The notes: a model not told the origin generated them from the sequence alone. 64,000 bases of DNA from an uncultured Holophagales bacterium (GCA_963842525.1 CAWJGT010000009.1:1792001-1856000), one strand, 5' to 3'. Numbered from the stretch's first letter, positions 16,776 to 47,866 are shown. Program-made: numbers and translations.

Positions 16776-16854
16776 GTGAAACACCCCCGTGTTTCGTCAC
16801 GGTTTGACGCGAAACACGGCCGTGTTTATGATTTCGGCTCTGGAGCGCTGTGCC

Positions 16855-20071: not shown

Positions 20072-20200
20072 CCGTCTTGAGCTCCTACCGGAAGACCTTC
20101 GAGGTCCGCTGGGCGGGCCTCGACCGCTCCTCTCGCCTCGAGCCTGCACAACTGTCATAATCCAGATGTGCCCCACTTTGTGGGCACAACAGGAGTGGTA

Positions 20201-20536
20201 ATGATGGAACCCCTTGATGTCTTCACCGTGCGGGACCTGCGTCAGCGGTCGGGGGACCTGCTTCGCGACGCCGAGCAAGGCAGGCTGTCCCTGATCACCA
20301 AACACGGCCGTCCGGCCATCCTGGCTGTGCCCTTCGACGAGCGTCTGCTGAGGTACGGAATTCATCGCGCTTTGGCCCTCCACCTGTTCGAAGCCGGACA
20401 GGTGACGCTCGCCCAGGGAGCCAGGCTGGCCGGCTTGCCGCTCGAAGCTTTCATCGAGCTCTTGGGCCAGACCGACATTCCAGCCGTGAGCTACCCTCCG
20501 GAGGATCTGGAGGACGAAGTCGAGGCCGCGCGTTGA
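20201..20536 (+). CDS. Antitoxin with Phd/YefM-like N-terminus and UPF0175 domain
   Basis: [15 protein letters not shown]...LITKHGRP followed by [21 protein letters not shown]. Confidence 0.8.
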
Positions 20537-21042
20537 CCGACCTCCCCGTCGTGGCAGATGCCGGTCCTCTCATTGGCTTGGCGAGAGTCGGCCTCCTGGA
20601 TCTGCTGCGCCAGCTCTATGGAAAGGTCCTGGTCCCGGCCCAGGTTTTCGAAGAGCTCCAGACCTCCGAGGACCGGCCGGGGTCACGAGCGCTCCGTGCG
20701 GCCGTGGAAGAAGGTTGGCTCGAAGCGGCTCCCCGGGCCAGAGGCGAGGAGTTGGAGTTTCTGAGCCTTGCCCTCGGTCCTGGCGAGGCAGGTGCGATTC
20801 TGCTCTCGGGGCAACGCCCCTGCCGTTTTCTCCTGCTCGACGAGCGGCGCGGAAGGACAGTCGCGAAGAGGCGTGGGCTCAGGGTTGTCGGGACTGGCGG
20901 GGTCCTTCTCGCGGCCAAGCAGCAGGGGCTGATAGACCGAGTCTCGGAGGTGCTCGATCAGCTCGCCAAGAGCGGGTATCGGCTCTCCCCTGAGCTCCGG
21001 AACCAGATCCTGAACCTTGCCGGAGAGGCCGAGAACGCATAG
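20533..21042 (+). CDS. PIN-domain toxin, DUF3368 family
   Basis: [36 protein letters not shown]; overlaps the antitoxin stop. Confidence 0.85.
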
Positions 21043-21174
21043 GAGAGCCGGCGCCAATTCTCCCCCGATCTGGAGGACCCGTGGGATTGCGTTTACTACG
21101 ATTCGCCAAGACTTTTTGGAATACCTGTCGCCCTCCACTAGTCTCTCAGCGATCATTCACATGAGGATCAACCC

Positions 21175-23371
21175 ATGATCACGAATGGCCCAATCTACTC
21201 GACGCTTCTTGCTGAAGCCGAACAGACTAGACCCTACGGGCCCGAGTCATTGAAGGTCATCTTCTCGACTGTCGAGAATCTTCAGAAGCACCCAACCTCC
21301 AGCGATCGCCCTGGAATGCTTTTGGGCATGATTCAGAGCGGCAAGACGCGCACTTTCGTGGGCGTCATCGCTCTTGCTGCGGACAATGGCTTTGACTTGT
21401 TCATCGTCCTCACCAAGGGAACAAAAGCGTTGACCACCCAAACCTACGAGCGTCTCAAGAAGGCGTATGACACGGCAATCGAGAGTGACGACCTGCGGGT
21501 CTTCGACATCATTGACGCTGCCGAAGCTGACTTCCCGCGAACAGCGCATCCCTGTGATCATCGTCGCCAAGAAGGAGAAACGGAATCTAGACCGCCTGAA
21601 GTCCGCTTTATTCAAGACCTATCCGTTCGAAAACCGGCGAGCCTTGATTATCGATGACGAGGCCGACTTCGCCTCGGTCGGATTCCGCCGTCCCAAGGGT
21701 GAACAGGCGGAGTTGCAGGCCATCATGCGCCTTATCTCCGAAGTGCGCAATGGTCTGCCGAACTCCAGCTTCCTACAGGTCACCGCGACGCCATATTCGC
21801 TATACCTTCAGCCGTCGGCACCGACTCCCGGGCAGGGTCCTGAGTTTCAGCCTGTCCGACCGGCCTTCACCGAACTCGTTCCCATCCATGACGAGTACGT
21901 CGGAGGCAAGGTGTACTTCGAGGAGTCAGGTGAACCCGGCTCAGTGGCCTCCGCCCTCTTCACCCCCGTGCTGCCCGAAGAGATCAACCTTCTCCACCAC
22001 GCTGATCGCAGACGATTCAAAGTTGAAGAGGCGCTGAATCATAGCGGGATCAACACTCTGCGGCACGCCATCATAACGTTTATCGTCGGCGGGGTAGTCC
22101 GGCGGCTTCAAGCCAAGAATTCCAGGGAGAAGCCTAGCAAATATAGCTTCATTATTCACACCGAATCGAGTCGAGGCTCTCATGCTTGGCAGGAAAAGAT
22201 CGTCGATACACTCATCGACACCGTCCGGACTGCGGCCGAGTCGCCCACGGCCCGCTTCGGCGAGCTCGCCAGAGCGGCGTACGACGACATCGCTCTATCA
22301 ATCGGCTTTGCAGGCGGATGGCTGCCTCCATTTGACGAAGTTCTTACGGAGGTCATCGAGCATCTTGCGGCAGTCCAGGTTGAGAAGGTCAATACTGACA
22401 ACGACGTCAAGAACCTCTTGGACCGCGACGGTCAACTCGAGCTGCGCAACCGTCTCAACATCTTCATCGGTGGCCAGATTCTTGATCGTGGCCTCACGAT
22501 TCGCAACCTAATTGGGTTCTACTACGGAAGGCGAGCGAATCGATTCCAACAGGATACCGTTCTTCAGCATGCCCGGATGTACGGCGCTCGTCCGAAGGCA
22601 GATCTTGCCGTCACCCGCTTTTACACGTCTGTTGACCTCCATCGCGTACTGAGCACAATTCACGAGTTCGATGCCGGATTGCGAGAGGCTTTCACGGCTG
22701 GCGGGAACGCCGCGGGCGTTGCGTTCATCCGCAGAGAGGGAGCCAACATAATTCCTTGCTCACCCAACAAGATCCTGATTTCAACCCTCACCACTCTTCG
22801 TGCGGGAAAGAGACTGCTTCCTGTAGCATTTCAAACCGGGTACAAGAGCCACGTGCTCAAGCACGTGAAGACCATTGACGGGTTCATCGCCTCCACGCTC
22901 AAGGCGGATGCTGTGGGCGCGCCCGTTCTGGTGAGCTTGACTGATGCCGAGGGCCTTGTCGATCTCGTCCATGCGACATTTGAGGATCAGAACGAGTTTG
23001 GCTACGAGTGGGACGTAGAGGCCTTCAAGGCAAGTATGGAGTACGTCAGCAAGCTCAACCCGGACCCAACGGAGCGAGGGAGCATTTATTTGCTAGCTCG
23101 TCGCGATCGCGATAATGTCCGCATTCGCGACAGCGGTCGGCCGTTTGATGCGCCGGATACCTCGCACGTCGAGGGCGCTATTGCCAAATCTGTCGCGAAA
23201 ACCGCCCCAATGCTCATGATGTTTCGGCAGAACGGGAGGAAAGAACGCGGGTGGCGTGACTGCCCGTTCTGGTGGCCTGTTCTGTATATGCCTCAGCGCA
23301 TGGGCACGGTGGTCTTCGCAAGCGATGTGAATGACTACGACGAGGATGCGCCAATTCCGTCCGTGCCCTGA
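21175..23371 (+). CDS. Z1-domain protein with SF2-like N-terminus; frameshift near 21515
   Basis: GMIQSGKT, IIDDEAD, TATPY, IGGQILDRGLT, DTVLQHARMYGAR; visibly more AT-rich than its neighbours. Confidence 0.85.
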
Positions 23372-23400
23372 GTTCGAACCGAACATCGGCTAACTCAAAG

Positions 23401-23451
23401 AGTAAGCCCCCGGCTCTGCCTGGGGACTCCCAGAGTTTGACAGTTCCGGGA
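23401..23451. mobile_element. Possible IS200/IS605-type terminal hairpin remnant with no transposase
   Basis: aagcccccggctctgcctggggactcccagagtttgacagttccggga resembles IS200-like ends (recognised from memory). Confidence 0.4.
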
Positions 23452-23590
23452 TCGTGGAAGTGTGGGCGGGCTTCACTGTTCGGAGTCGATCGGAGCTGAA
23501 AAGGAGAAAGGAGGTGGCGGAGGGGCGGGCGGTGGCACCATCTATCGCAGAAACTGCGGCGAAGACCTGCGCTCCAAGTGGAGGATCCGG

Positions 23591-23798
23591 CGCCTGGCCG
23601 GAGGTCGCCTGCGCCGGCATGTCCATCGGCCACAAGGGAATGACCTACGCTGCCAAGGCCCTGGCCGCCACGGCGATCGACCTCTTCAAGAGCCCGGACC
23701 ACCGCAACGCCATCCGCCAGGAGCTCGAGGAGAAGACGAAGGGGCAGATCTACAAGGGTTACATCCCCGACGGCCCGCCGCCGATCCCGAAGGACTGA
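23591..23798 (+). pseudogene. Orphan duplicate of the amidohydrolase 3' end (208-bp repeat, copy 2)
   Basis: Encodes AWPEVACAG...PPPIPKD* with 8 synonymous changes and 1 N/D change versus copy 1. Confidence 0.92.
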
Positions 23799-23823
23799 CG
23801 GCGGCGCTGGAGAGGCACGGCGG

Positions 23824-25747
23824 TCAGCTCGCTCCGCCGAGATCCCGCCAGCCCAGGATCTCGTCGATGGTCTGCCGCGAGACGGAGTGGTAGCCGGGCC
23901 GGGCCTTCTCGTAGATGCGCAGGGCCAGCTCGGCGCCTTCGGGAGTCTTCGCCAACTCGGTGTAGAGGGGCCGCAGGAACTTCCTTCTCCCCATGCCCGT
24001 CAGGAACCGCTCCAGCGCCGGCCAGGCCGCGTCGTAGCGGCTGTCGATGGCCCGCAGGAACCAGGCGTTCAGGATCTCGGAGTTGCCCGAGTCGGTGAAG
24101 TGGAAGGCCGCGTCGAGCTCGGCCATCCGGTCCCGGCTGAGCGGCGCCGGCAGGTTGGGCAGGAAGTGTTGCCACTGGAACGCATTCCACCCCTGGGTCT
24201 GGAGCTGGCCGGCAGGAGTCCCCCGGGCGAAAGCCTGGAGCTGGCGGTCCACCTCGGCGAAGGCCGTGGAGCGGATCTCCGGCGCGTTCAACGGCAGCCC
24301 CGGTCCGTAGACCCACTGCTGGATCTGCAAGCGCTCGGCGAGCGCTGCGTCGCCGGCGAGCAGGCTCTGCTGCAGGATGGCGAGGAACCCAGCGGTATCC
24401 GTGGACTGAAAGGCGTGCGAGTCGAAATACTCGCGCAGGAAGCGGTCGAGCTTCTCGCGCCCCACGGCTTCCTCGATCGTCCGCAGGAACAGAGACCCCT
24501 TCTCGTAGGCGATGTCGTTCATCCCTTCGTCGGGGTCGCGGCCGGCGAGGCTCAGGAAGAGGTGGGTATCCGGCTTGTCGGCCCCGAGGTCCTCGAGCGT
24601 CGTTTGCAGATCCTGCCGGCCGAGCACCCAGAGCATGTCCACGTAGTCCTTGCCGTGGAGCGACTCCATGATCCGGCGCTCGAAGTAGTTGGTGAAACCT
24701 TCGTTGAGCCAGAAGTCGTTCCAGGTAGCGTTCGTCACCAGGTTGCCCGACCAGGAGTGGGCGGAGCTCATGGGCGATCAGCGACACCAGGGAGCGGTCG
24801 CGGGCGAGCAGGGTGGGGGTCACGAAGGTCAGGCGCGGGTTCTCCATGCCTCCATAGGGGAAGCTCGGCGGCAGCACGAGCAGGTCGTAGCGGCCCCATC
24901 GATAGGGGCCGTAGAGGCGCTCGGCCGCGTCGATCATCTTCGGAGTGTCCGCGAATTCCCAGGCCGCGAGGTCGATCACCGTGGGCTCGGCGTAGACGCC
25001 GCTGCGCTCCCCGAGCGGCCGGAAGACGATGTCGCCCACCGCGACCGCTAGGAGGTAGGAGGGGATCGCCTGCGGCATCCGGAACTGGTAGACGCCGTCG
25101 GCGCTCTTCTGGGTCGGGTTCTCGGCGCTCATCAGGGCCAGCAGACCGCGCGGCACGCGCAGGGTGGCCTCGTAGGTCATGCGTACGCCGGGCGAATCCT
25201 GGCAGGGCACCCAGGTGCGGGCCAGGATCGCCTGCGACTGGCTGAGCAGGAAGGGAGCCGTTTTGGAAGCTGTCTGCTGCGGGTCGAGCCACTGGAGAGC
25301 CGCCGCCTCCGGCCGGGTGGAGTAGTCGACGTGGACCCACTGGGTCGCGGGAGTGATCTCGATCTCCAGGGCCCGTCCGAGGAACTCCACCGGCTCGCCC
25401 AGGGTGAACCGCGTGGCCGTGCCGTTGTCCAGGGTCACCCTCTGGACGTCCAGGTCGCGGGTGTCGAGGACGAGCCGCTCAGCGCCGGTCTTGTTCTTGA
25501 TGCGCAGGCTGGCGCGACCGGCGAGCCGGCGCTTCTCGAAGTCGACGCCGAGGTCGAGCTTCAGGTGCTCGACCGCGACCTCGTCGGGCCGGGCAAAGGA
25601 GTGCGGGTCCTGCGACGTCTCCTGGACGACGCGCACGGCCGGCGCCGCGGTCACGGGCGGCGGAGCCGGGGTGGCGCAGGCGAGCAGCCAGGGTCCGAGA
25701 ACGAGCAGGGCGAGGGACGAGCGGTGGAGGAGCTTCGGCATGGCCAT
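23824..25747 (-). CDS. M1 aminopeptidase (leukotriene A4 hydrolase-like), lipoprotein; frameshift near 24770
   Basis: LLAC lipobox; PYGGMENP; IAHEL/AHSWSGNLVTN...WLNEGF split across two frames; YEKG. Confidence 0.9.
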
Positions 25748-25788
25748 AAGGAGGCGATTATACGAGGGAGTGCAGGATCAAACCGGGA

Positions 25789-26721
25789 TCAGATCGCCGG
25801 CTCGCCCTGATCCAACGCCTTGTGCAGGCGCTGCAGGATCGCGAAGACCTCGGGCCGCGTCAGCTTGGCGCCGGGGCCGCGGGCCTCGATCCGGTCCAGG
25901 GTGGCCTGGGCGAGGTGGACCGGCAGGGCGTTGAAGGCCACCAGCCCCTGTTCCGCCCCGGCGCGCTGGAGAGCGAGCACGTACTCGGCTGCCTGATCCA
26001 GGTCCCGCCGCGCCAGGGCCATCACCTCGGCCCGGTCCACCCCCTCGGGCAGGTACCGCCGGCCCTGGGTGGCGTCGGAGGCGGAGTCCTTCAGGATGTT
26101 GACGAGCTGCAGGCCCTCGCCGAAGGGACGCGAACGCGACCGTAGCAGGGAGGAGGCGTCCGCCAGCCCGGGCCGTTCGCGCAGGAACAGCTCGGTCAGG
26201 AGCTCGCCGACGATGCCCGCGACCACGTAGCAATAATCTTGAAGATCCGCCAGGTCCCGCAGGCGCAGCTCCCCCTGATCCGAGGTCCGAGCCACAAAAC
26301 CCGCCATGCCGTCGGCGGTGCGCACCGTGTGCTCGCGGATCAGGTCGACCGCGCCGGGGGAGAGAGCAAAGAATGCGTCCAGCACCGCCGGCAGCCCAGC
26401 CAGCAGATCGCGGTAGGCCGGGTGCTCGCAAGGGACCTCGGTGGCCCAGCGACGCGCGGTCGCCGCGATCTCGTCCGTGTCCGGCGCGTGGAGCAGGCGG
26501 CCGAAGTCTTCCAGGGCCTCGATCCGCTGCGCCTGCGGCCAGCTCGTCGCGTCCTCGAAGGTGTCGGCGATCCGGAAGAGCAGGTAGGTGATGGTCACCT
26601 CCCGCCGGGTCGGCTCGGGAAGCAGGGGGATGGCCAGCGCGAAGGTGCGGCTGGTGGTGATGAGGAGCTGCTCCAGGTCCACCGCGCTCTCCGCCGCCTG
26701 GAGGTTCGAGTCCGCAAGCAT
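25789..26721 (-). CDS. Squalene/phytoene synthase, squalene-synthase-like
   Basis: SRTFAL, YLLFRIADTFED, DYCYVVAGIVGELLT, FGEGLQLVNILKD, GRRYLP. Confidence 0.85.
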   Translation of the reverse strand: MLADSNLQAAESAVDLEQLLITTSRTFALAIPLLPEPTRREVTITYLLFRIADTFEDATSWPQAQRIEALEDFGRLLHAPDTDEIAATARRWATEVPCEHPAYRDLLAGLPAVLDAFFALSPGAVDLIREHTVRTADGMAGFVARTSDQGELRLRDLADLQDYCYVVAGIVGELLTELFLRERPGLADASSLLRSRSRPFGEGLQLVNILKDSASDATQGRRYLPEGVDRAEVMALARRDLDQAAEYVLALQRAGAEQGLVAFNALPVHLAQATLDRIEARGPGAKLTRPEVFAILQRLHKALDQGEPAI

Positions 26722-26834
26722 TCGCAGAGGATAACAGGTCCGGGCCCCTCACCCCCGGCCCTCCAGCGGCGGGCGACCGGTAATCCTTTTCGAGAAGCTT
26801 TGACCCGCCTGTCCGTATCGTCTAGACTTTTTTC

Positions 26835-27713
26835 ATGGCTCAGCCGGTGCGGAACAACCCGGCCCTGTCGCCGTGGGATCTCGACTGGGACGAGAACGAG
26901 GAGGCTTGCCTCGTCTTCGGCTTCCGCGAGGGACTCTTCCGCGCACCCGATGGCGGCGTCGAATACCGCCAGATCCCCCTGACCGCCGAGGACTACATCA
27001 ATCCGCGCGTCGGTGACCACTTGACCCAAGGCAACCGCCACGCCATCGTCAGCATGAACCTGTACGACATGCTCGAACAGCGGTATGAGACCGCAGCGGA
27101 TGTGATGGTGTCCTTCGACATGAAGATCCGCTGGGGAATGCGCCGGCTTCCAAGCCCGTCGCCGGACGTGGCGGTGATCCCGGACGTACGCGACAGGGAG
27201 AAAAGTCGCAAAAGCTTCCATGTGGGCGCGGAAAAAGCACGCCCCTGCCTGGTCATCGAGGTGGTCTCGGCCGACGAGGAGGGGGACGAGCGGTGGCTTG
27301 CGGATTATAAGACGAAGGTCGACATCTACCGGCGAGCCGGGGTGCCGGAATACCTGATCGTGGACCCCCAGCACTACCTGAAGGAGCCGCACCTGCGGCT
27401 CACCGGCTACCGCCTGGACGCGAGAGGCCGCTACCGGCCGATCGAGCCGGACGCCCAAGGGCGACTGCTCTCGGAGACGACCGGCGTGTGGTTCGCCATC
27501 GCGCCGGACCGCCAGGACCCCTGGCTGATCGACGCCGCCACCGGGGAGCGGCTGTTGACCGGACGCGAGACGCGGGCCGCCCGGCGGGAGGCGGAGCAAG
27601 CTCGGCAGACAGCCGAAGAGCGAGCCGCGGCAGCCGAAGAGCGAGCCGCAGCGGCCGAAGCAGAGCTGGCGCGATTGCGTCAGAAGCTGGGGCTCGGCGA
27701 TCCACAGCCCTGA
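26835..27713 (+). CDS. Uma2 family PD-(D/E)XK endonuclease with coiled-coil tail
   Basis: SPDVAV, PCLVIEVVS, K..IY.RAGVPEYLIVDP; AEERAAA tail. Confidence 0.88.
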   Translation: MAQPVRNNPALSPWDLDWDENEEACLVFGFREGLFRAPDGGVEYRQIPLTAEDYINPRVGDHLTQGNRHAIVSMNLYDMLEQRYETAADVMVSFDMKIRWGMRRLPSPSPDVAVIPDVRDREKSRKSFHVGAEKARPCLVIEVVSADEEGDERWLADYKTKVDIYRRAGVPEYLIVDPQHYLKEPHLRLTGYRLDARGRYRPIEPDAQGRLLSETTGVWFAIAPDRQDPWLIDAATGERLLTGRETRAARREAEQARQTAEERAAAAEERAAAAEAELARLRQKLGLGDPQP

Positions 27714-27756
27714 GCCGGTTTCCCGTCTCCCGTCATTTGAGATCACTTCCCGGCTT

Positions 27757-27810
27757 CCCCCTCTCCCGGTCGGGGGGAGAGCGATGGGAAAGGGGCCAGG
27801 GGGGGTGAGG
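27757..27810. repeat. REP family A (CCCTCACCCC..CCCCTCTCCC..GGGAGAGGG); other copies near 14140, 26745, 28970, 29351, 32249-32374, 36041-36108, 43458-43600, 57612-57668
   Basis: The same G/C-run palindromic motif recurs in intergenic positions, often as inverted doublets. Confidence 0.8.
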
Positions 27811-27813
27811 TGT

Positions 27814-27891
27814 CTACGTCACCTCTGTCCCTGGCACCTCCTCCCCGCGCAGCGCCCGTTCCAGTGCGCCGGGGGCAAGGCCGTTGAGGAT
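27814..27891 (-). pseudogene. Orphan duplicate of the isopentenyl phosphate kinase 3' end
   Basis: Encodes ILNGLAPGALERALRGEEVPGTEVT* versus ILNGLTPGALERALRGEEVPGTEVSLTP* of the full gene ending at 29356. Confidence 0.88.
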
Positions 27892-28720
27892 CGCCTCCTG
27901 GGTGCCAGAGGATCCTCCTGAGGCTTCCTCCCTCGCCGGCGGAAACGTCTACTGCCCGTGCTCTCACGGAAGAAGACCGCGATCCTTCCACCTTCGAAGC
28001 ACCATCCCTCCCCGCACCCGGCCCTCGGACCCCCAAGATACCGCGACGCGATCGAACTGCACGGTTTCCGACCGGGAGCTTTCCACCGCACCTGCCGTTC
28101 GTCAGCGACCAGCCGCCGCATGGTCTCATTCCCGTGCCCGGGTAGCCGCGCTGGTCCCGCCAGTTGCAAAAGCTCCCTCGCCTGGCTGCCGGGCAGAGCT
28201 GTACCCGGTCTAGTGCTGGTCGTCGGCAGATCTCAAAGAATGCGGGGAAAATCCCTCTCAATCTTCTCCGGGGCGCAGCCCAAGGGCGCGTTCAGGTGCC
28301 CCGTGAGGGTAAATGCAGGCCGGCCCGCAAGCCTCGCGGGGCTCCATGCTCAAGATTCCCCAAGAATCCTCAGGCACCTATTCTAGACCGCAACGAGGGG
28401 TTAGGCGGCCAGTCGCCGCCGTAGCGACGCGATTCTTAGAGGACTTCAAGACGGAACCGAGGATTTACCGCGCCGGATTCGACGTAGCCGCCCCCCGAGA
28501 GAATCAGCCGCCATTCGATGCCTTTGCCGCGAGTAGCGGTACGTTGAGCCCTGGCTCGTCGAGTGATTCCAGGAGTGGCGCGACCGCCAGAAAGTGACGT
28601 GGCCGGACCACAATTTCTTTGGGAATAGTGCCGTCACCCGGGAGCACATCGATCGCCTCGATGTGTTGGAGCCCTCCCTGATCCGCGAGGATACTGCCCT
28701 TGCTGTCGAACACGATCGCG

Positions 28721-28922
28721 TGAGGCCGGAGGCCGATGCCCTGGGAGAAAGGCAATACGCCAAGGCGGCCTGAAAGGCCCGCGAGAGATCTGGTCCGAGT
28801 CGGCGCGTTCCGCTCCGGCTCTCGCGGACCTTTCAGGCCGCGTGACCGTGGGGCCTGTTGACCCAGGGCATCGGCCTTCGGTCTCAGCCCTGGGCTGCGC
28901 TCTCGCGACCCCTTGGGTCGCC
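28721..28922. repeat. REP family B composite (GCCGATGCCCTGGG / GGCCTGAAAGGC / CCCAGGGCATCGGCCTTCGG.CTCAGCCCTGGGC)
   Basis: Nested inverted repeats; close relative at 46333-46585 and an interrupted copy at 43691-43725. Confidence 0.85.
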
Positions 28923-29013
28923 AAGGCCGCGTGCCGGCCAAGCCCGGCTAAGTAAGGTTAGCGCGTATGCCCGGTCGGGGGGAGGGCGATCACGCCCACC
29001 GGCGGGCGCGAAC

Positions 29014-29154
29014 CCGATTCACGGTGAAACGGCTCTGGTTTGCCATGAACGCGGGCCGATTCATGGTGAAACGGCTCTGGTTTGCCGTGAACGCGGGCCG
29101 ATTCATGGTGAAACGGCTCTGGTTTGCCGTGAACGCGGGCCGATTCATGGTGAA
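29014..29154. repeat. 42-bp tandem repeat, about 3.4 copies
   Basis: ccgattcatggtgaaacggctctggtttgccgtgaacgcggg units start at 29014, 29056, 29098 and 29140 (partial). Confidence 0.92.
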
Positions 29155-29355
29155 CCGGCCCTCATCGCGGCGATCCGGCCGCGGTTCGTCATGATCTCGG
29201 CCCGATTCGCCATGACCGCGAAGCCGTTTCCCGCGAATCGGCCCTCGTTCGTCATGAATCGGTTGCGTTCGCGGCGATCTCGTCTCCGTTCACGGCGAAC
29301 CACGACCGGTTCACCACGATCCGCCCCACCCAGAGCAAAGTTAGCGCGCATGGGG

Positions 29356-30159
29356 TCAGGGGGTGAGGGACACCTCGGTCCCCGGCACCTCCTCGCCGCG
29401 CAGCGCCCGCTCCAGAGCGCCGGGGGTGAGACCGTTGAGGATCAGCGACGGGATGCCCAACCGGGCGAGCGCGAGCGCCGTCTCCACCCGGTGGCGCATG
29501 CCGCCGGTCACGTCGGTCCCGGCGGCGGAGCCGATCGCGCTGATGGCCTTACCGGCCCCATCTGCTGAGATCCGCGGGATCGTCCGGCCCGCCTCGTCCC
29601 AGACACCGTCGGTCTCTCCCAGCCAGAGGGCGCGGCGAATGGAGATCCCCATCCCGGGCAGCGTGCGGGCGAGCAGCTCGAACAGCCGCTCGGTCGAGCA
29701 GATCGAAGCGCCCCAGGCGCGGTCCATCACCACATCGCCGTAGAGCACCGGCAGGAGCCCCTGCGCCAGGGCGAGGCGCAGAGGCTCGGCGTCGAGGGAG
29801 ACCGGCCGGCCGGCCTCGGCGACCACGCAGCTCGACGGAGCGATGGAGAAGGGGAGCGCGCCGGCTTCGACGAGACCAGCCACCATCAGCCGGTGGAGCA
29901 CCGCGGCACGCTCCTGGGTCACGGAGATTCCGGGGACCTGGTCCGGCGAGAGGGCCCCTTTGGCGAGGCCGTAGCGGTGGGCCGCGACGTGACCGTACGA
30001 GCCGCTGCCATGGGCCACGATCAGGAGCTCCGCGAGGCCCGGCGCGGTGCGCGCGATCTCGTTGGCCAGCCGGGCGATCACCTCCGACCGCGGCGTCTCC
30101 GGCCGCGTTTTGTCGGTGATCAGGCTGCCGCCGAGCTTGACGAGGATGGCGTCTGGCAT
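29356..30159 (-). CDS. ipk: Isopentenyl phosphate kinase (amino-acid kinase fold)
   Basis: ILVKLGGSLITDK, AHGSGSYGH, PVLYGDVV, TDVTGGM; translationally coupled to the decarboxylase. Confidence 0.9.
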   Translation of the reverse strand: MPDAILVKLGGSLITDKTRPETPRSEVIARLANEIARTAPGLAELLIVAHGSGSYGHVAAHRYGLAKGALSPDQVPGISVTQERAAVLHRLMVAGLVEAGALPFSIAPSSCVVAEAGRPVSLDAEPLRLALAQGLLPVLYGDVVMDRAWGASICSTERLFELLARTLPGMGISIRRALWLGETDGVWDEAGRTIPRISADGAGKAISAIGSAAGTDVTGGMRHRVETALALARLGIPSLILNGLTPGALERALRGEEVPGTEVSLTP

Positions 30160-31172
30160 CAGAACAGGTGCTGGGTCTCGACCTCCGGGCCGTCGCCGAC
30201 GCCGTCGCGGATGACGAAGCCGACGGCGGGGAGGTCTTCCAGCCGTTCGGCGACCTGGTCTTCGGAGTCGGGGTCGCAGAGGACGTGGATGTTGGCGCCC
30301 GCGTCCATGGTCGCCCAGGCGGCGAGCCCCTCCTGGCGCAGCTCGCGGACGGCGCGCAGGACCGCGACCGTGCCGGGGCTCCAGTAGAAGATCGGCGGCC
30401 GCGAGGACATGGCGATCAGATGGAGGTCGATCGCCTCCTCTTCGAGGACCGGGCCCAGCATCTCGAGGTCGGCGTGCTCGATGGCCCGCCGGACCCGCTC
30501 CAGGCGCTCGGGCAGGAGCTCCAGGCGTTTGGTGTAGTAGGGACTGGTGTGGGCGCGCTGGTGCCCATCGTGCGACGAGACCACCTTGGGTCCGATCTCG
30601 ACGACGGCGATCACGTCGCGGAGGTCCCAGTGGGCGGCGTCGGCGAGCTGGACCGCATAGCTCTCCTCCTCCGTCTCGTTGCCGTTGGTCCTGTCGACCG
30701 GCCATTCGACGTAGCCGCCGAAGATCGAGCGGGCCGCCGAGCCGGAGCCGCTGCTGCGGGCGAGGCGCGACAGCTCCTCGGGCGGGACGTCCCCCTTGCC
30801 GAGGACCTTGGCGACCGCGAGCGTCAGGGCGGCGAACCCGGAGGCCGACGAGGCGAGACCGGCGGCGGTGGGGAAGCTGTTGCGCGTCGCCACCCGGAAC
30901 CGCTCATCGCGGCCGGCCCACTGCCGAATGCGGTCGAGGTGCTGGTCGACCCGCCGGCCGAACTCCGGATCGGGCGAGCCGAAGCCGTCCGGCTCCTTGA
31001 TCCAGACCTCGTCGCGTCCCGAGTCGAGGATCTCGACGGTGCACTTGCTCACGCACTCTTCCAGGGTCATGGAGATCGACGGGTTCATGGGGAGCGCCTT
31101 TTCGAGGTCGCGAGCCCCCCAGTACTTGATGAAGGCGATGTTTGCCGGTGCGGAGACGGTGACCTTGCTCAT
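30159..31172 (-). CDS. Mevalonate (di)phosphate decarboxylase, probably the phosphomevalonate decarboxylase type
   Basis: ANIAFIKYWG, NSFPTAAGLASSASG, SGSAARS, TMDAGAN; substrate inferred from operon context. Confidence 0.88.
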   Translation of the reverse strand: MSKVTVSAPANIAFIKYWGARDLEKALPMNPSISMTLEECVSKCTVEILDSGRDEVWIKEPDGFGSPDPEFGRRVDQHLDRIRQWAGRDERFRVATRNSFPTAAGLASSASGFAALTLAVAKVLGKGDVPPEELSRLARSSGSGSAARSIFGGYVEWPVDRTNGNETEEESYAVQLADAAHWDLRDVIAVVEIGPKVVSSHDGHQRAHTSPYYTKRLELLPERLERVRRAIEHADLEMLGPVLEEEAIDLHLIAMSSRPPIFYWSPGTVAVLRAVRELRQEGLAAWATMDAGANIHVLCDPDSEDQVAERLEDLPAVGFVIRDGVGDGPEVETQHLF

Positions 31173-32257
31173 CCGAAAGCCTCCTCCTGAAGGAACCCCG
31201 GGGCTCCCAGGTGGACAGAGTAAAAACGAAAAAATCGCAAAAACTTCCACTCCGCGATCCGCTCGGGATCGGGATGATAAACCAACAGAGAGCCCGCCCC
31301 CGGGCCCGCGAGCGAGCCGGCGCCGGAGATTTTTGCCGCTCCTCCCTCGGCTTCCACCCGGCGGACGGCGCCGCGAACGGCCTCGGGGACGACACCGATC
31401 TCCTCGAGGCAGGCCTCGTAGGCCCGAATCTGATGCAAGGTCCGGTCCGGGTCCTCCGTCTCCCGTTCGAGCTCGGCGCGGAAGGCCCGGGTCGCCGCCT
31501 CCATCCTCTCGAGCAGGCGCTCGTGCCGATCCGGCTCCCGGTCGCGGCGGTCGCGCACCGCGGCGACCACGGCGCCGGTGGGCTCGGCGGGCGTCCCTGT
31601 GTCATAGACCCGCAAACGAGACAGCAGGGGTGAGCCCGCGGCGACCGGCTCGGTCTCGACCCCCCCTTCGGCCCGGCGGCGCGCCCAGATCACCCCCCCA
31701 TGGAGCACTGTGGCGCCGTCGACACCCGAAGGCTGGCCGTGCTGCCGGCGCTCGACCTCCAGGGCCAGCCGCTCGATCCGAGAAAGGTCAGGTGTGGTGG
31801 AGAAGAAAGCGAGCGTGGCTGCAGTCACCGCCACGGCGGTCGCCGCCGAGCTGCCGAACCCGGAGCCGATGGGCAGGTCGGACTCGACCCTGAGGTCGAT
31901 GCCGTCTCCGACCTCTCCCGCCAGCTCCTCGGCAGTCTCGCCCAGCGCCACCTTGACCACGTGCGCCGGGTCCTCGCCGCGCACCCGGCGGAACGCCTCG
32001 GCGCCAGGCTTTTCCGCGTACTCCGTCCAGGTTGTGCGGGCGGCTCGGGCATAAGCGCGGACAGCGTCCCAGGAGAGATCCTCCTGGTGGCTCAAGCCGG
32101 GAAGGTCGAGATGGATGGCGTTGCCGAAACGGGGTGAGATCCGGGCGGTGAGGCGGAGGTCGATCGCGGCGACGAGGGCGGGCCGGCCGTAGACGGCGGC
32201 GTGCTCGCCCATCAGGATGAGCTTGCCGGGGGCGGAGACGGCGACGGGACCCCTCAC
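31169..32257 (-). CDS. mvk: Mevalonate kinase (start uncertain: GTG 32257 or ATG 32275)
   Basis: SAPGKLILMGEHAAVYG, PIGSGFGSSAA, HGQPSGVD, AKISGAG. Confidence 0.9.
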   Translation of the reverse strand: MRGPVAVSAPGKLILMGEHAAVYGRPALVAAIDLRLTARISPRFGNAIHLDLPGLSHQEDLSWDAVRAYARAARTTWTEYAEKPGAEAFRRVRGEDPAHVVKVALGETAEELAGEVGDGIDLRVESDLPIGSGFGSSAATAVAVTAATLAFFSTTPDLSRIERLALEVERRQHGQPSGVDGATVLHGGVIWARRRAEGGVETEPVAAGSPLLSRLRVYDTGTPAEPTGAVVAAVRDRRDREPDRHERLLERMEAATRAFRAELERETEDPDRTLHQIRAYEACLEEIGVVPEAVRGAVRRVEAEGGAAKISGAGSLAGPGAGSLLVYHPDPERIAEWKFLRFFRFYSVHLGAPGFLQEEAFG

Positions 32258-32391
32258 CCCCGGCCCCTCTCCCATCGCCCCCCCTGCCCCCGGGAGAGGG
32301 GAGAAAAGCGATCTGTTCCCCCCTCTCCCGGTCGGTGGGGGGGCGATGGGAGAGGGGGGTCAGGGGGGTGAGGTCTCAAACGTCGCCGTGA

Positions 32392-33699
32392 TCAGGTCCG
32401 GTGCGGCCCGAGCGGCATCTGGCCGGCGGTTTGGACGGACGCCTGGCCGCGCGCCAGCTTCTCGTGCGCCCGCGCCAGGTCCTGGGACGTGAAGGCGGCC
32501 ATCAGCGACAGCTCGCCGGCGAGGACCACCGCGCCCACGATCTCGGCGAGCCGCATGACGGCATCACCGCGCCGCTCCGGATCGGGGGAGACACCGAGCA
32601 TGGCCAGAGCCTCCCGCTGCGTGTCGAGCTGCGTGCCGCCTCCGACCGCGCCCAGGGGGACGTCGGGCAGGAACACCGAGGCGAAGACCGACTCCGGGCC
32701 TCGCGGCTCGATGCAGGTGATCCCCATGGAGCCCTCGACCACGTGCGCCGGATCCTGTCCGGTGGCGATGAAGAAGGCCGACAGCACGTTGGCGTAGTGG
32801 GCGTTGAAGCCCAGCGAGCCGGCCGCGATCGAGCCGAGGAGGTTCTTGCGGTACTGCACTTCGACCAGGTCGCGGGCGTTGGTCTTGAGCTGGTGGTGGA
32901 GGATCGGCGCCTCCAGCAGCACCTCGGCGTAGATCCGCTTGCCGCGCCCCTCCTGGAAGTTGATGTGGGAGGGCTTCTTGTCCACGCAGTAGTTGCCCGA
33001 GAGGCCGATGCAGGGGACGCCGGTCGCCGGCTCGATCAAGTCGTTGACCACGCGGTCGCAGGCGATGGTCACCATGTTCATCCCCATGGCGTCGCCCGAG
33101 TCGAAGCGGAAGCGCAGGAAGACCGTGGTGCCGAAGGCGTAGGGCCGCACCTCGAGCAGGCGCAGGTGGCTGCTGGTGGCCTCGGTGGCCCGCCGGATGT
33201 CCTCGTCGTTGTCCTTGATCCACTGCAGGAACTGCTGCGTCTGCACGATCCCCGAGGTGCGGAAGACGGGCGCCCGGGTCATGCCCACGTCCTCGACCCG
33301 CACCACGGCGCCGCCGGCCTCGCGCAAGGCCGAGCAGCCGCGGTTGGTGCTCGCCACCAGCGCCGCCTCGGTGGTCGCCAGCGGCACCCAGACGTCGCCG
33401 TCCACGTGCTTGCCGCGGACGCGCAACGGCCCGACCACGCCCATGGGTACCTGGGCCACGCCGATGAAGTTCTCGCAGTTGCGCTTGGAGGCCCGCTGCA
33501 CGTCGAGCGAGTGGTGCGCGATGTGGTCGAGCGGCGTCTGCGTCATGCGCTCCAGCGCCAGCCGCCGGATCTCCGCCGCATCTTCCGCGGAGAGGTCCTT
33601 GGGCAGCTCGTGGAAGCGGCGCTCGCCACGGGCCAGCGCGTCGACCAGGTCGTCGCGGGTCGGTGGGGCGGGGATGGGATCGATATTGGTCATGCTCAT
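32392..33699 (-). CDS. hmgA: HMG-CoA reductase, class I (NADPH)
   Basis: CENFIG, PLATTE, SGDAMGMNM, LSGNYCVDKK, ATGQDPA, GELSL..A. Confidence 0.93.
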   Translation of the reverse strand: MSMTNIDPIPAPPTRDDLVDALARGERRFHELPKDLSAEDAAEIRRLALERMTQTPLDHIAHHSLDVQRASKRNCENFIGVAQVPMGVVGPLRVRGKHVDGDVWVPLATTEAALVASTNRGCSALREAGGAVVRVEDVGMTRAPVFRTSGIVQTQQFLQWIKDNDEDIRRATEATSSHLRLLEVRPYAFGTTVFLRFRFDSGDAMGMNMVTIACDRVVNDLIEPATGVPCIGLSGNYCVDKKPSHINFQEGRGKRIYAEVLLEAPILHHQLKTNARDLVEVQYRKNLLGSIAAGSLGFNAHYANVLSAFFIATGQDPAHVVEGSMGITCIEPRGPESVFASVFLPDVPLGAVGGGTQLDTQREALAMLGVSPDPERRGDAVMRLAEIVGAVVLAGELSLMAAFTSQDLARAHEKLARGQASVQTAGQMPLGPHRT

Positions 33700-34745
33700 T
33701 CTCGCGGCCCTTTGCGGAGATCGACGTTCTTCAGCTCCGCGACTGTTTTCACGCCGAGGCAGAACATACAGATGCGCAGCTCCTGGACCACGCGCCGCAC
33801 CTTGTCGGCGACCCGTTCGGCGGACTCGGTGGCCGCCGCCAGGAAGGGATAGGCCATTCCTACCAGGTCAGCCCCCAGGGCGATGGCCTTAGCGGCATCG
33901 ATGCCGTTGCGGATGCCCCCGCTCGCGATCACCGTGGCCCCGGGCACCTGCCGGAGGGCTTGCCGGACCTCGCGGATCGACTGCGGGGTCGGGATGCCCC
34001 AGCCGGCGAAGATCTCGCCGATCTCGACGTCCCCGGCCCGTTGCGCCTCGATCCGCGCCCAGCTCGTGCCGCCCACGCCGGCCGTGTCGAGGATGTGGAC
34101 CCCCTGGCCGGCGAGGTCCTGCGCGGTCCGCCCCGAGATGCCGCAGCCGATCTCCTTGACCACCACCGGCACGCCGAGCCCGCGGACCACCTCGCCGATC
34201 TTGGGCAGGAGGCCGGCGAAGTTGCACTGGCCCTCGGGCTGGATGGCCTCCTGCAGCGGGTTGAGGTGAAGGATCAGGGCGTCCGCCTGGATCATCTCCA
34301 CCACCTGCCGGCACTCGCGCACGCCCATGCCGTAGTTGAGCTGGACGGCGCCGAGGTTGGCCAGCAGGGGGACCGACGGCGCGAGATCCCGGACGCGAAA
34401 GGTATCAGCTTTCGCCGGGTCTTCCAATGCCTTGCGCTGCGAACCGACCGCCACGGCGATGCCCGTCCGCTCGGCCCCGGCCGCAAGATTACGGTTGATG
34501 ACGCCGGCGGCCTCGGTGCCGCCCGTCATCGAGGAGATCAGCAGGGGCGCCGCGAGGCGACGGCCGAGGAGCTCGACAGAGGTGTCCACCTCCGCCATGT
34601 CGATCTCCGGCAGCGCGGCATGGTCGAATCGGTAGTCGTCGAAATAGTTGGCGCCGAGCTGCATCCGCTCGTCCAGGGCGAGCCGGATGTGCTCGGCCTT
34701 GCGGTCGCGCTCGAGGTCCACCGGGCTCTCCAGGAGGGCGCTCAC
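33696..34745 (-). CDS. fni: Type 2 isopentenyl-diphosphate isomerase
   Basis: GTG start; RKAEHI, ISSMTGG, VGSQR, HLNPLQE..QPEG, VKEIGCG, GGTSW, IASGGIRNG. Confidence 0.93.
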   Translation of the reverse strand: MSALLESPVDLERDRKAEHIRLALDERMQLGANYFDDYRFDHAALPEIDMAEVDTSVELLGRRLAAPLLISSMTGGTEAAGVINRNLAAGAERTGIAVAVGSQRKALEDPAKADTFRVRDLAPSVPLLANLGAVQLNYGMGVRECRQVVEMIQADALILHLNPLQEAIQPEGQCNFAGLLPKIGEVVRGLGVPVVVKEIGCGISGRTAQDLAGQGVHILDTAGVGGTSWARIEAQRAGDVEIGEIFAGWGIPTPQSIREVRQALRQVPGATVIASGGIRNGIDAAKAIALGADLVGMAYPFLAAATESAERVADKVRRVVQELRICMFCLGVKTVAELKNVDLRKGPRE

Positions 34746-35911
34746 TGCTCGCGCTCCCACAGGAAGTCGATCAGCCCTTCGAGGAAGAGCCGCCCCTCCG
34801 GCTGCAGCTCGAATCCGCGCTCGGAGCCCTGGAGCTCCTCGAGGGCCTGGTGCGCCGCCCGCAGCCGCTCGGCCACCATGGCGGTGACCTTGGCGCGGGC
34901 GCCGGTCTCTTCGAGGATCCGTTGCACGCGGGTCACCTCGGCGACCTCCAGGCCGGGATTGCCGAGCGCGGCGTCGAGGGCCTGCCTCTGCTCCGGGGTG
35001 GCCGCGGCGAGGGCGTGATGGATGAGGAACGTGAACTTCCCCTCGCGCAGGTCCTCGCCGACCGGCTTGCCCACGGTCCGGGCGTCGCCGAACATGCCGA
35101 GGAGGTCGTCCTGGAGCTGGAAGGCCTCGCCGATCGCCGCGCCGTAGCGCGAGAGGCCTGCGACGACCTCGTCCGGCGCACCGGTGAGCAGGGCGCCGAG
35201 CTGGATCGGCCGCTCGGCCGTGTAGCAGCCCGACTTCAGCCGCAGCACGCGGAGCAGCTCCTCCTCGCGGCCGGCCGCGGAGGCGTCCGGCGCCTGAAGG
35301 GAGAGGGCCCCGCGGCGCTGTGCCAGCAGCAGCTCCAGGTACTGGCCGCCGATGACCTCCTCGCTCATCGCCGAGAAGCAGCGCGCCAGGCGCCGGCGCC
35401 GCTCGCCGTCCAGGTCCAGGCCGGTGAACAGCTCCACCGCCCAGGTGTGCGCCAGGTCGCCGAGCAGGATGGCCACCGAGCGGCCGAAGTCCTGCGGGTC
35501 GCCGTGGAAGCCGCGCTGCTGGTGCGCCTGGCGGAAGCGGACGTGCGCGGCCGGCTGGCCGCGGCGGACCTCCGCGTGGTCCATGATGTCGTCGTGGATC
35601 AGCAGGTAGGTGTGGATCAGCTCGCACGCCAGGGCGAGGGGGAGGACCTCCTGGTCCGACGGGCCGCCGCAGGCGCGGTAGGTGTAATAGACCAGGGCCG
35701 GCCGCAGGCGCTTGCCCCCCTGGGTGGTGAGCTGGCCGACGCCGTCGATCAGCTCGCTCATCTCGCGCCAGCCGGCCGCCGCCTGCCGCTTGCTCGCCAG
35801 CCAGGCCGCCAGCTCGCGGTCGAGCTTCTCGCGCAAGGCGTCCAGGAGGTCGTGGAACCCGGCGGGCACGTCCTGGTGCCAGGCTGACGGAGCGGCTGTA
35901 GGTCGTCCCAT
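34742..35911 (-). CDS. Polyprenyl (FPP/GGPP) synthetase
   Basis: GGKRLRP, LIHDDIMD...RRG, GQYL, AFQLQDDLL, DLREGK. Confidence 0.93.
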   Translation of the reverse strand: MGRPTAAPSAWHQDVPAGFHDLLDALREKLDRELAAWLASKRQAAAGWREMSELIDGVGQLTTQGGKRLRPALVYYTYRACGGPSDQEVLPLALACELIHTYLLIHDDIMDHAEVRRGQPAAHVRFRQAHQQRGFHGDPQDFGRSVAILLGDLAHTWAVELFTGLDLDGERRRRLARCFSAMSEEVIGGQYLELLLAQRRGALSLQAPDASAAGREEELLRVLRLKSGCYTAERPIQLGALLTGAPDEVVAGLSRYGAAIGEAFQLQDDLLGMFGDARTVGKPVGEDLREGKFTFLIHHALAAATPEQRQALDAALGNPGLEVAEVTRVQRILEETGARAKVTAMVAERLRAAHQALEELQGSERGFELQPEGRLFLEGLIDFLWEREQ

Positions 35912-36165
35912 GGGTTCGTTCGAGAAAAGTCCGAATGTGCCGGTCTTTGAGAGTTTATCCGGAAACTCCGTCCGCCGGATGTGGATCATAGCGGAAGAGC
36001 ACTTTGCAATGCAAAGTCGAGGGGTGGTGCGGGCTGGAGTCCTCACCCCCTGTCCCCTCTCCCATCTCCCTTCCACCCCCCGCCGGGAGAGGGGGACAGG
36101 GGGTGAGGTTTTGCCCAAGCGACCACTGACTTTGACGGAGTCGTCGGTGGTGTAGAGTTTTTGCC

Positions 36166-43411: not shown

Positions 43412-43636
43412 AGGCCTGAGAGGGTGTCTGGAAAACTCTGCTGGGGGCGTCGCCTTGGCCCCTCACCCCCAGCCCCTCTCCCATCCGCACTCCCTTCCCC
43501 CGGGAGGGGGGAGAAATGCATGATCAGGAAGCTCCTGGGTGGGGGCTCCCCTCTCCCGGGCGGGTGTGAGTGCGGATGGGAGAGGGGTCGGGGGTGAGGG
43601 CCCGCGGCGGGACTCGCGCAGGACTTCCAGACACCC

Positions 43637-43877: not shown

Positions 43878-44045
43878 TCCAGCTTCTATCCGTGCTGACC
43901 TCTTTGGGTCAGGACACCAAATGCAGCATGCGCTGTCGAGCGACTCAGGCAAGCTCTCGGAGCGGCCCCATCTGAGAGAACGGTTCGGAAGCCGAACCAA
44001 GCCCTGGGCCGGGCACGCTCCACCAGTCGTTTCTCTCCGAGCTTT
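43878..44045 (-). ncRNA. Putative bridge RNA / seekRNA (boundaries approximate)
   Basis: Two internal loops, each around a short hairpin; loop strands match the target flank (gcccagggct; ctgaga) and the element end (cttctat). Confidence 0.7.
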
Positions 44046-44056
44046 TTCCTCCCAGA

Positions 44057-44570
44057 TTACTTCGTCTTCAGCTCAGCACCCTCAGGAATCACACCGTAGT
44101 CCAGATAGCGCCACAGCGCGATCAGCAGCTTGCGGGCGAGGGCCACGATCCCCACCCGCCGAGATCGGCGGCTCCCAGGACCATAACGCTCCTGAAACCA
44201 CAAGCTCAGGCGACTCTGCGGTTGGAAGCGCAACCAGCCCCAAGCGATCTCGATCGCCATCGCCCGGACCCGACGATTCCCCGCCTTGCTGATCCCTTGT
44301 TCGTGGTTGACCGTGTCACCGCTCTGATAAGGCATCGGCGTCAGACCCGCCAAACCGGCCACCTCACGGCGGTTGCGGAACTGCCGCCAGCCGAAGAACT
44401 CCACCACGAACAGCCAACCACTGTTGCCTCCGATCCCCTTGAGCTCTTGCAGCCGCTGCACCTTCTCCGTCGCTTCCACGCTGGCCGTCCGGCGAAACCG
44501 CTCGAGCTCGGCAATCTGACTCTCCAGCACAGCCAGACGCTCGCCCTCTCGCCTCAAACGCTCTCTCCGC
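44057..44570 (-). pseudogene. IS110 transposase, C-terminal half only
   Basis: LKGIG...F.NRREVAGLAGLTP.PYQSG...GISKAGNRRVR...IVALARKLLIALWR; N-terminal DEDD RuvC domain absent. Confidence 0.9.
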
Positions 44571-44761
44571 TCCGATTCGAACCTGCCCCGCCCGCGAACC
44601 GCCTCACCAAGGCCGAAATTTGCGCCGAAAGCTCCGAGCTGGCAGCTTCTACGAGTGCGGCTTGGAATATCCGCGCCGGATTCCGCCGCGCTCCGCTTGG
44701 AAGCTCCTGCACACCTGTCGAGAGCGGCCGGACCACTGCCCCTTCGGACGCCGCAACCAGC

Positions 44762-45030
44762 GCGGCCTGCATCACTACGGCGGCGGCCTGCATCACTCGC
44801 ACCCTGGCCTGCGACACTGCTCGGGTGAAGCGAATCATTCCGAAGGTGAAGCACATCACTCCTGTTGTGACCTGATACGCTCCAAAGGTGGCAGGAGTGA
44901 TTCGTGTGATGTTCGGAGTGTCTCGCGGATCGGCGTGTGTGATGCGCGATCCGGCGGGAGTGTTGCGCTTCGAAGGCGAGGTGATGCAGATCACGGCAGG
45001 AGTGATGTCAGTCGTGATGCACGAGAGCGC
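44762..45030. repeat. Degenerate 21-bp-periodic tract with inverted symmetry
   Basis: Units such as gcggcctgcatcactacggcg / gcggcctgcatcactcgcacc / gtgaagcacatcactcctgtt, then ggcaggagtgattcg / ggcaggagtgatgtc. Confidence 0.6.
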
Positions 45031-45478
45031 GGAGTGTTCGGGTGCATTGCGGCGCAGGATCGCTATGCCCAAGGAGCTGAAGCGCCTGGTGCCGAGACCG
45101 CGCCGTGTGTCCTCCAGGCTCAGCCGTATGCAGCGCGCCGATCTTGTCGTAGGCCGAGGCGACTTGGCCGGTCCTCAGAAGCGGCTCGAAAGTCCTCGCC
45201 AGCGAACAGACTCGACCCGCTGGTGATCCAGGTCCGTCGTGTCATCCTGTGAGCGTAGCGAAGGATCTGGGCGGTGGGAACGGCCCCCACCAGCGTCATG
45301 TGGCACGACCTTTATTTCTCCGTGCGTTGATTCATTTTTTCACCGGTTCAATTCTCCACTGCGCCAATTCCTCACCCGCGGCGGTACCGGGCCGGTGCGC
45401 CGCCCGCCCGTTCCACCGCCCCTGAAGGGGCTCGAAAACGAAATCGGAGCCACCTGATCCCCGGGTTGAAACCCGGGT

Positions 45479-46189: not shown

Positions 46190-46332
46190 GATCAGAATAG
46201 ATGCTTCAGGAACGGCGCGCAGAAGGCCGGATTATGGCAAGCCGGTGGGAGATCGTGGCGAAATCGTGGCTTTACTCATCTGATCGACTACCTCCGAGAA
46301 TCCTCGTGCGGCGCGCAGATTTCGTCTCCATC

Positions 46333-47723: not shown

Positions 47724-47866
47724 TGCCTTCTCCTCTTTGTGGAAAGTTAACATCCCTCATTTGGGCCAGGCGAGCGCGTACGGTGCCGAGCTCCTCGAAC
47801 GCTGCGCGGCAGCTCTGCCAGTGACGACCTGATGAGATACTACACCAAGCACCCTACCGAAGTGGC

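Follow-up and report, generated by a model that had tools for sequence, protein, structure and literature searches.

The decarboxylate-first form of the mevalonate (MVA) pathway, in which mevalonate kinase (MVK) is followed by a mevalonate-phosphate decarboxylase (MPD, or PMD) and isopentenyl phosphate kinase (IPK), is described from Chloroflexota (Roseiflexus castenholzii MPD, Dellas 2013; Anaerolinea thermophila PMD, PDB entry 6n0x) and, with the decarboxylase MvaD, from Haloferax volcanii. Among bacteria, this route is restricted to Chloroflexi/Chloroflexota in the available excerpts of PMC6107057 (2018), PMC9254496 (2022), PMC9385802 (2022) and PMC11052028 (2024), and no literature linking it to Acidobacteriota was found in the library that we could search. 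Here we describe a six-gene operon at positions 29356-35911 of a stretch of 64,000 nucleotides (nt) from an uncultured Holophagales bacterium (GCA_963842525.1, CAWJGT010000009.1:1792001-1856000), hereafter called the window. Its sequence suggests that the encoded enzymes probably follow the same route, MVK being followed by a decarboxylase acting on mevalonate 5-phosphate and then by IPK, in a genome predicted to lack phosphomevalonate kinase (PMK). Most likely, this extends a known pathway to a second bacterial phylum and does not represent a new pathway.

The locus shares with the Chloroflexota systems MVK, a GHMP-family decarboxylase without the diphosphate-binding Lys, IPK and, as far as the window extends, the lack of PMK, and the decarboxylases on both sides, for those scored, pass the NCBIfam cutoff for mevalonate diphosphate decarboxylase (MDD, or DMD). 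It differs from them in that its decarboxylase falls in a separate, strongly supported clade, has Ala where the Chloroflexota enzymes have Asn, Val or Leu, and is without Arg at position 26, and in that its genes form one operon with a class I HMG-CoA reductase (HMGR). In 21 of the 24 Chloroflexota-clade loci that we collected (including L053, which has a gap at the Lys position), the search revealed no further pathway gene next to the decarboxylase, and the excerpt of PMC6107057 gives the MVA genes of Chloroflexi as dispersed and accompanied by HMGR-II. The Haloferax volcanii type has the same proposed reaction order, and the IPK of the window belongs to the archaeal IPK family (NF040647), whereas its decarboxylase lies outside the haloarchaeal MvaD equivalog NF040704.

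Classical MVK-MDD-PMK operons, such as that of Bacillus (locus L077), have in common with the window a clustered lower pathway, a type 2 isomerase and the GHMP decarboxylase fold, but contain a clear PMK (TIGR01220, 344 bits in L077), the key Lys and no IPK; the window differs in all three respects. In clusters of the candidate phyla radiation (CPR; Patescibacteria), mevalonate genes may occur together with IPK and a prenyl synthase gene (Hoshino and Gaucher 2018, excerpt of PMC6107057), and decarboxylase and IPK are adjacent in L031. CPR-type loci differ from the window in having two MVK-like kinases in tandem and a Lys or Arg residue at position 20. Finally, the acidobacterial SD22 metagenome-assembled genome Mor1 (Sinninghe Damste et al. 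2017, PMC5462960) has a neighbourhood like that of two relatives of the window described below (L025 and L021). According to the available excerpt, Mor1 is without genes of the methylerythritol phosphate (MEP) pathway; its genes for a type 2 isomerase, HMGR, MVK and a decarboxylase are accompanied by shc, hpnH and a squalene-synthase-like gene. The decarboxylase is listed there as mevalonate diphosphate decarboxylase, in a gene table with neither PMK nor IPK; the reading is the classical one, and neither IPK nor the alternative route is named in that excerpt.

Gene content and conservation of the operon

As an earlier note made from the sequence of this stretch had described, the operon consists of six co-oriented, mostly overlapping genes. 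All lie on the minus strand and together fill 29356-35911, and the mevalonate genes are intact; in transcription order, the junctions are overlaps of 4, 4, 4 and 1 nt and one 116-nt gap between HMGR and MVK (Table 1). The decarboxylase gene, which overlaps MVK by 4 nt, has AGGAGG upstream of its ATG, and IPK is translationally coupled to the decarboxylase.

The best NCBIfam matches of the polyprenyl synthase were models for farnesyl/geranyl diphosphate (FPP/GPP) and geranylgeranyl diphosphate (GGPP) synthases, all far under their cutoffs. HMGR scored 41 bits on the class II model TIGR00532 and 391 bits on PF00368. For MVK, TIGR00549 was by far the best model, with PMK models at 43.6 and 37.5 bits, and all 11 PDB matches are named mevalonate kinase. 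Among the eight PDB matches of IPK, the top seven are IPKs (up to 122 bits) and the eighth and weakest is FomA (60.6 bits); the aligned stretches K-x-GGS, HG-GS-x-GH (the His-containing motif) and DVTGG are kept with respect to the PDB IPKs. Terminator-like hairpins with T-rich tails were observed at 31232-31307 on the minus strand, within the 3' end of MVK and just upstream of the decarboxylase start; this stretch is locally AT-richer and encodes a Phe-rich tail.

Table 1. Features of the operon and of the adjoining insertion (positions counted from the first letter of the window).
Feature	Position	Strand	Evidence or remark
Polyprenyl diphosphate synthase, short-chain, operon gene 1	34742..35911	-	PF00348, 200 bits; ATG at 35911
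Type 2 (FMN-dependent) isopentenyl diphosphate isomerase	33696..34745	-	TIGR02151, 397.5 bits (cutoff 281.3); GTG start, 4-nt overlap with upstream stop
Class I (NADPH-type) HMGR, soluble, 435 amino acids	32392..33699	-	TIGR00533, 452.6 bits (cutoff 441.8)
HMGR-MVK gap, 116 nt, sole intergenic gap of the operon	32276..32391	.	Inverted pair of a dispersed repeat (~58 nt) inside
MVK, sole GHMP kinase of the operon	31169..32275	-	TIGR00549, 153.4 bits (slightly under cutoff 163.05)
GHMP mevalonate-phosphate decarboxylase (MPD/PMD; substrate predicted)	30159..31172	-	PF22700 and PF18376; TIGR01240, 245.1 bits
IPK	29356..30159	-	NF040647, 159.9 bits (cutoff 120); start overlaps decarboxylase stop by 1 nt
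Lineage-specific insertion, 2.7 kb, between IPK and squalene-synthase-like gene	26685..29355	.	Flanks 62 nt apart in L005, 2,687 nt here
Uma2-family endonuclease open reading frame in the insertion	26835-27713	+	PF05685
Squalene/phytoene-synthase-family gene	25789..26721	-	PF00494, 122 bits; TIGR01559 (squalene synthase), 91.5 bits, under cutoff

Pfam scans (E <= 1e-6) were run on 206 of the 232 stop-to-stop open reading frames (ORFs) of at least 140 amino acids in the window; the other 26 fall within the cluster, for which the six genes themselves were scanned. No further GHMP kinase or PMK, HMG-CoA synthase, thiolase or MEP-pathway domain was detected in the 64-kb window by these scans, in agreement with the earlier note as regards PMK and HMG-CoA synthase.

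To place the operon among its relatives, we scanned a genome collection with the decarboxylase alignment, which yielded 80 loci, so that the set used for alignment and tree comprised 81 decarboxylases including that of the window. The six window proteins were searched against all ORFs of these loci over ±10 kb, with a phmmer threshold of E <= 1e-5 for a second GHMP kinase. In the maximum-likelihood tree, 29 of the 80 loci grouped with the window in a single clade (SH-aLRT support 100). Two of them are titled Gemmatimonadota; the titles of the others name Acidobacteriota, the class Thermoanaerobaculia or its order Candidatus Multivoradales. The six genes occur in the same order in 22 of these 29 loci; four others have five genes, a match to the polyprenyl synthase being absent, and three are cut by a contig end. 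The polyprenyl synthase is present in 22 of the 29, and IPK adjoins the decarboxylase in all of them. The gene arrangement, found again in 29 loci from other genomes, is not due to chance.

In none of the 29 clade loci did the search reveal a second GHMP kinase in the 10 kb on either side of the decarboxylase. Its sensitivity would have sufficed, since ORFs that NCBIfam names PMK were recovered from 10 classical loci, at 25-33 bits. The local lack of PMK claimed in the earlier note thus extends from the window to the ±10 kb examined in all 29 related loci. Likewise, no HMG-CoA synthase was found within ±10 kb in the five related loci scanned for it.

The route that we propose would start from HMG-CoA supplied by an HMG-CoA synthase and a thiolase encoded elsewhere. 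The class I HMGR would convert HMG-CoA to mevalonate, and MVK would phosphorylate mevalonate at C5, giving mevalonate 5-phosphate. From this, the GHMP decarboxylase would form isopentenyl phosphate directly, in an ATP-dependent reaction, and IPK would produce isopentenyl diphosphate (IPP). The type 2 isomerase would interconvert IPP and dimethylallyl diphosphate (DMAPP), and the polyprenyl synthase would elongate them. Ancestrally, the product of the next gene, a squalene-synthase-like enzyme, would have led toward squalene and, in deeper relatives, on to hopanoids.

Substrate class of the decarboxylase

The best PDB match of the window decarboxylase was 6n0x/6n0y (247.5 bits, E = 2e-72), and the best true MDD was 5v2l (169.2 bits). 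According to the excerpt of PMC9254496, 6n0x is the phosphomevalonate decarboxylase of A. thermophila with mevalonate 5-phosphate bound, and mutagenesis by Thomas et al. changed the specificity from that of a PMD to that of a DMD. The entry 6n0z differs from 6n0x at two positions only (YWG[N>K] and G[H>M]); from this difference and the one sentence in PMC9254496, we infer that the 6n0z double mutant is that specificity switch. At these two positions, the window enzyme has Ala20 (YWGA) and His204 (DGH). Because Ala occupies the first of them, the enzyme is without the diphosphate-binding Lys, which Table 4 of PMC3857490, in the part available, gives as a diphosphate contact (K21 in S. epidermidis) that is conserved in MDDs and replaced in MPDs. 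Lack of the Lys with retention of the His is used to recognise PMD-like enzymes in the excerpt of PMC11052028. The Ala and His state was found in all 30 clade members (window included). The catalytic Asp column (D290 in the window) has Asp in all 81 aligned decarboxylases, and the residue is also aligned in the 6n0x match; the enzyme is therefore a full decarboxylase and not mevalonate-3-kinase-like, following the rationale in the excerpt of PMC9254496. With a PMD as its nearest characterised enzyme and the Lys for the second phosphate absent, the decarboxylase appears to be of the type acting on mevalonate 5-phosphate, as the earlier note had proposed.

The residue at position 20 was compared with the gene context over the aligned set. 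PMK or a tandem second GHMP kinase was encoded close to 19 of the 26 decarboxylases with Lys or Arg; of the others, one had IPK (L031, Roizmanbacteria, with Arg) and six had neither. Among the 54 with a non-basic residue, none had a PMK or second GHMP kinase, 33 had IPK and 21 had neither; the single sequence with a gap (L053) had no PMK or second GHMP kinase and no IPK nearby. The 33 non-basic decarboxylases next to IPK comprise the whole clade of 30 and three others, L043, L045 and L047.

Two loci outside the clade were of separate interest. L047, titled Planctomycetota, encodes MVK, decarboxylase and IPK, and its key residue is Asn; in L050 (Aggregatilineales, Chloroflexota), Lys occurs alongside a CPR-type second kinase. 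It seems that the two routes are intermingled in more lineages than have been listed in the literature.

Several points weigh against the assignment of the window enzyme to the MPDs. The association between residue and context corresponds to three state changes and one independent pair on the tree (p = 1), so the counts above are descriptive and carry no weight beyond the clade level. The enzyme scored over the cutoff of the diphosphomevalonate decarboxylase model TIGR01240 (171.35) and reached 147.5 bits on the haloarchaeal MvaD model NF040704, under its cutoff of 475. At the other positions of Table 4, it is MDD-like or neutral, with Ser143 and Ser145 (GSGS) and Ser200 kept. The Arg that models of MPDs position at the phosphate (R83 in R. 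castenholzii, Arg also in A. thermophila) corresponds to Ala26; this position is Ala, Val or Gly across the clade, with Arg or Lys at the neighbouring position 25 in 25 of the 30 members, and the available part of Table 4 of Dellas (PMC3857490) gives Arg/Thr for Chloroflexi. His204 was rejected as a sole marker, being kept also in CPR-type enzymes with Lys and a second kinase. Moreover, the clade is not nested in that of Chloroflexota, the deep forks having a support of 8 in a quick search. IPK coexists with the classical pathway in CPR bacteria and plants according to the excerpts of PMC6107057 and PMC3857490. Finally, PMK may be encoded elsewhere, because 64 kb of a contig of about 1.98 Mb were read.

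One rival account is a classical pathway, in which the decarboxylase would be a genuine diphosphomevalonate decarboxylase, PMK would be encoded in another part of the genome, and IPK would act in isopentenyl phosphate salvage, as proposed for plants and possibly CPR. The TIGR01240 score, the agreement of Ser143, Ser145 and Ser200 with the MDD column of Dellas, the lack of the MPD-type Arg at position 26, the 64-kb extent of the window, the combination of IPK with two GHMP kinases in CPR clusters (PMC6107057, excerpt) and L031, where Arg at position 20 occurs next to an adjacent IPK, are all in line with it. We nevertheless consider it improbable. The Lys for the second phosphate is Ala throughout the clade, and all 29 relatives are without a second GHMP kinase within ±10 kb, though the operon holds every other step from HMGR to prenyl synthase; in addition, the decarboxylase stop overlaps the IPK start. 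As for TIGR01240, seven non-basic decarboxylases (from six Chloroflexota loci, including Anaerolinea sp., and from L047) scored 249-278 bits on this model and 185-239 bits on NF040704, under its cutoff. The TIGR01240 label is uninformative because these enzymes also pass it, and NCBIfam naming was rejected as a discriminator.

The mixed residues of the enzyme (Lys lost, serines kept, Arg absent) would also fit a promiscuous decarboxylase that uses both mevalonate 5-phosphate and 5-diphosphate, an intermediate state compatible with either order of steps. The clade branches apart from both the Chloroflexota and the classical clades, and the excerpt of PMC11052028 attributes dual activity to Chloroflexota enzymes and treats absence of the Lys together with His as a possible intermediate. 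A diphosphate substrate would, however, be without a source if PMK is absent, and none was seen locally. Promiscuity seems to us about as unlikely as the classical pathway. In the phylogeny, the window enzyme belongs to its own 30-member clade outside that of Chloroflexota, and the deep forks that connect the Acidobacteriota clade with those of Chloroflexota, CPR-type and classical enzymes are without support (8); with this value, a sister relationship to the enzymes of Chloroflexota or Archaea was dropped.

Taxonomic setting and residence of the operon

The best 120 homologues of the decarboxylase were 73-91% identical to it, and all seven that name an organism are titled 'Thermoanaerobaculia bacterium'. 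For an unrelated marker, the acyl-CoA dehydrogenase encoded 23 kb away at 59015-60157, the organism-named matches were all from Thermoanaerobaculia (9 of 9). The only Rfam match in the window was an Acido-Lenti-1 RNA at 46635-46680 on the minus strand (49.8 bits, gathering score 37). Together with the collinear relatives described below, these two proteins and the RNA bear out the earlier suggestion of a probable acidobacterium: as judged from sequence, the contig is from Acidobacteriota, class Thermoanaerobaculia, so that the Chloroflexota origin named in the earlier note as a challenge to its reading was not found. The protein collection contains a 100%-identical entry for the acyl-CoA dehydrogenase of the window, from a contig of 1,975,831 bp, and none appeared for the decarboxylase, perhaps owing to a different start call.

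Collinearity with the window extends over about 18 kb (~23.8-41.9 kb) in eight loci of Thermoanaerobaculia or Acidobacteriota, at 72-84% nucleotide identity, and the operon is also present in a second order, Multivoradales. The collinear synteny across the class supports the long residence that had been suggested earlier, and the best explanation is that the operon is chromosomal and inherited vertically within the lineage.

A rival account of its origin is recent horizontal acquisition of the cluster from Chloroflexota or Archaea. In the available part of PMC5462960 (Table 2), the type species in culture, Thermoanaerobaculum aquaticum, is listed with MEP genes but with none for squalene or hopanoids; given these MEP genes, the operon is not shared by the entire class. 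The operon is bordered by an insertion and by dispersed repeats, and two loci that carry it (L021 and L027) are titled Gemmatimonadota. The clade of 30 decarboxylases with full support outside that of Chloroflexota, the collinear flanks in eight relatives and the occurrence in Multivoradales all argue against such a transfer, as do the G+C content (0.70-0.715 at the operon, 0.59-0.71 elsewhere in the window, in 2-kb steps) and the class I HMGR, as opposed to HMGR-II and dispersed genes in the MVA sets of Chloroflexi (PMC6107057, excerpt). We regard recent transfer as very improbable. The decarboxylases of L021 and L027 nest in the Thermoanaerobaculia clade, and their operons reflect either transfer or mis-assigned bins.

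The squalene/hopanoid neighbourhood and other features of the window

A squalene-synthase-like gene directly follows IPK in L010 and L025, as identified by Pfam, and in L005, L001, L013, L008 and L009, as seen from collinear blastn blocks; the distance between the two genes is ~60-100 nt in L005, L010, L013, L001 and other relatives. Judging by these relatives, the corresponding gene of the window is the ancestral seventh gene of the operon, split off here by the 2.7-kb insertion. In two deeper relatives, L025 (Multivoradales) and L021, a squalene-hopene cyclase gene and an HpnH-like radical SAM gene precede the mevalonate genes, and L025 also has an epimerase gene and a nucleosidase-family gene ahead of them. 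Because of these neighbourhoods, the operon is best regarded as the part of a squalene/hopanoid locus that supplies the precursors.

Repeated sequences were observed in and around the insertion. It holds a 73-nt, 89% identical duplicate of the 3' end of IPK (27820-27892). Just downstream of IPK lies a 42-bp tandem repeat (29014-29159; 3.5 copies, 97% match), with related inverted copies at 29287-29327. A palindromic element of ~200 nt occurs twice, at 28721-28920 and 46333-46578, with 73-80% identity and matches in both orientations. Moreover, a dispersed intergenic repeat of ~55-70 nt was found at 27757-27823, 32248-32387, 36041-36096 (just upstream of the operon), 43548-43599 and 57609-57666; at the HMGR-MVK gap, it is present as inverted copies (32248-32301 and 32319-32387) that match 27757-27823. 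This repeat may be an element of the REP (repetitive extragenic palindromic) or MITE (miniature inverted-repeat transposable element) kind.

Elsewhere in the window, some genes are split across frames, at 9509-11386, 23762-25777, 5260-6610 and 1200-2367: a DUF885 gene (four pieces), a gene for an M1/leukotriene-A4-hydrolase-like peptidase (two pieces), an S1-domain gene (two pieces) and an AAA ATPase gene, the tail of which matches the antiphage MADS3 model. This splitting points to assembly indel errors or pseudogenes. Two stretches have a lower G+C content (0.60-0.64). The first, at 20000-24000, contains small UPF0175/DUF3368 ORFs and a gene for a Z1-domain protein, with an AAA_14/DUF4143 ORF just upstream (16780-18216); the second, at 44000-48000, contains a fragment of an IS110-family transposase gene and DUF1361. 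Both are probably mobile or defence islands. A tRNA scan found none in the window.

If the decarboxylase acts on mevalonate 5-phosphate as proposed, hundreds of public entries named 'diphosphomevalonate decarboxylase' would be flagged for re-annotation, and pathway engineering would gain a compact cassette of seven genes. A second phylum, in which the genes form a tidy operon with a class I reductase and the decarboxylases a clade of their own, would provide an independent data point on the relation between PMD and DMD. For the organisms themselves, the route would explain how squalene and hopanoid precursors are supplied in abundant soil and sediment acidobacteria. More tentatively, and with considerable doubt, we suggest that most Thermoanaerobaculia, Thermoanaerobaculum excepted, may have dropped the MEP pathway and rely on an MVK-MPD-IPK operon wired to squalene and hopanoids, their decarboxylases representing a third independent MPD lineage, separate from those of Chloroflexota and haloarchaea. 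If so, the decarboxylate-first pathway would be old and more widespread in bacteria, which would bear on whether PMD or DMD came first.

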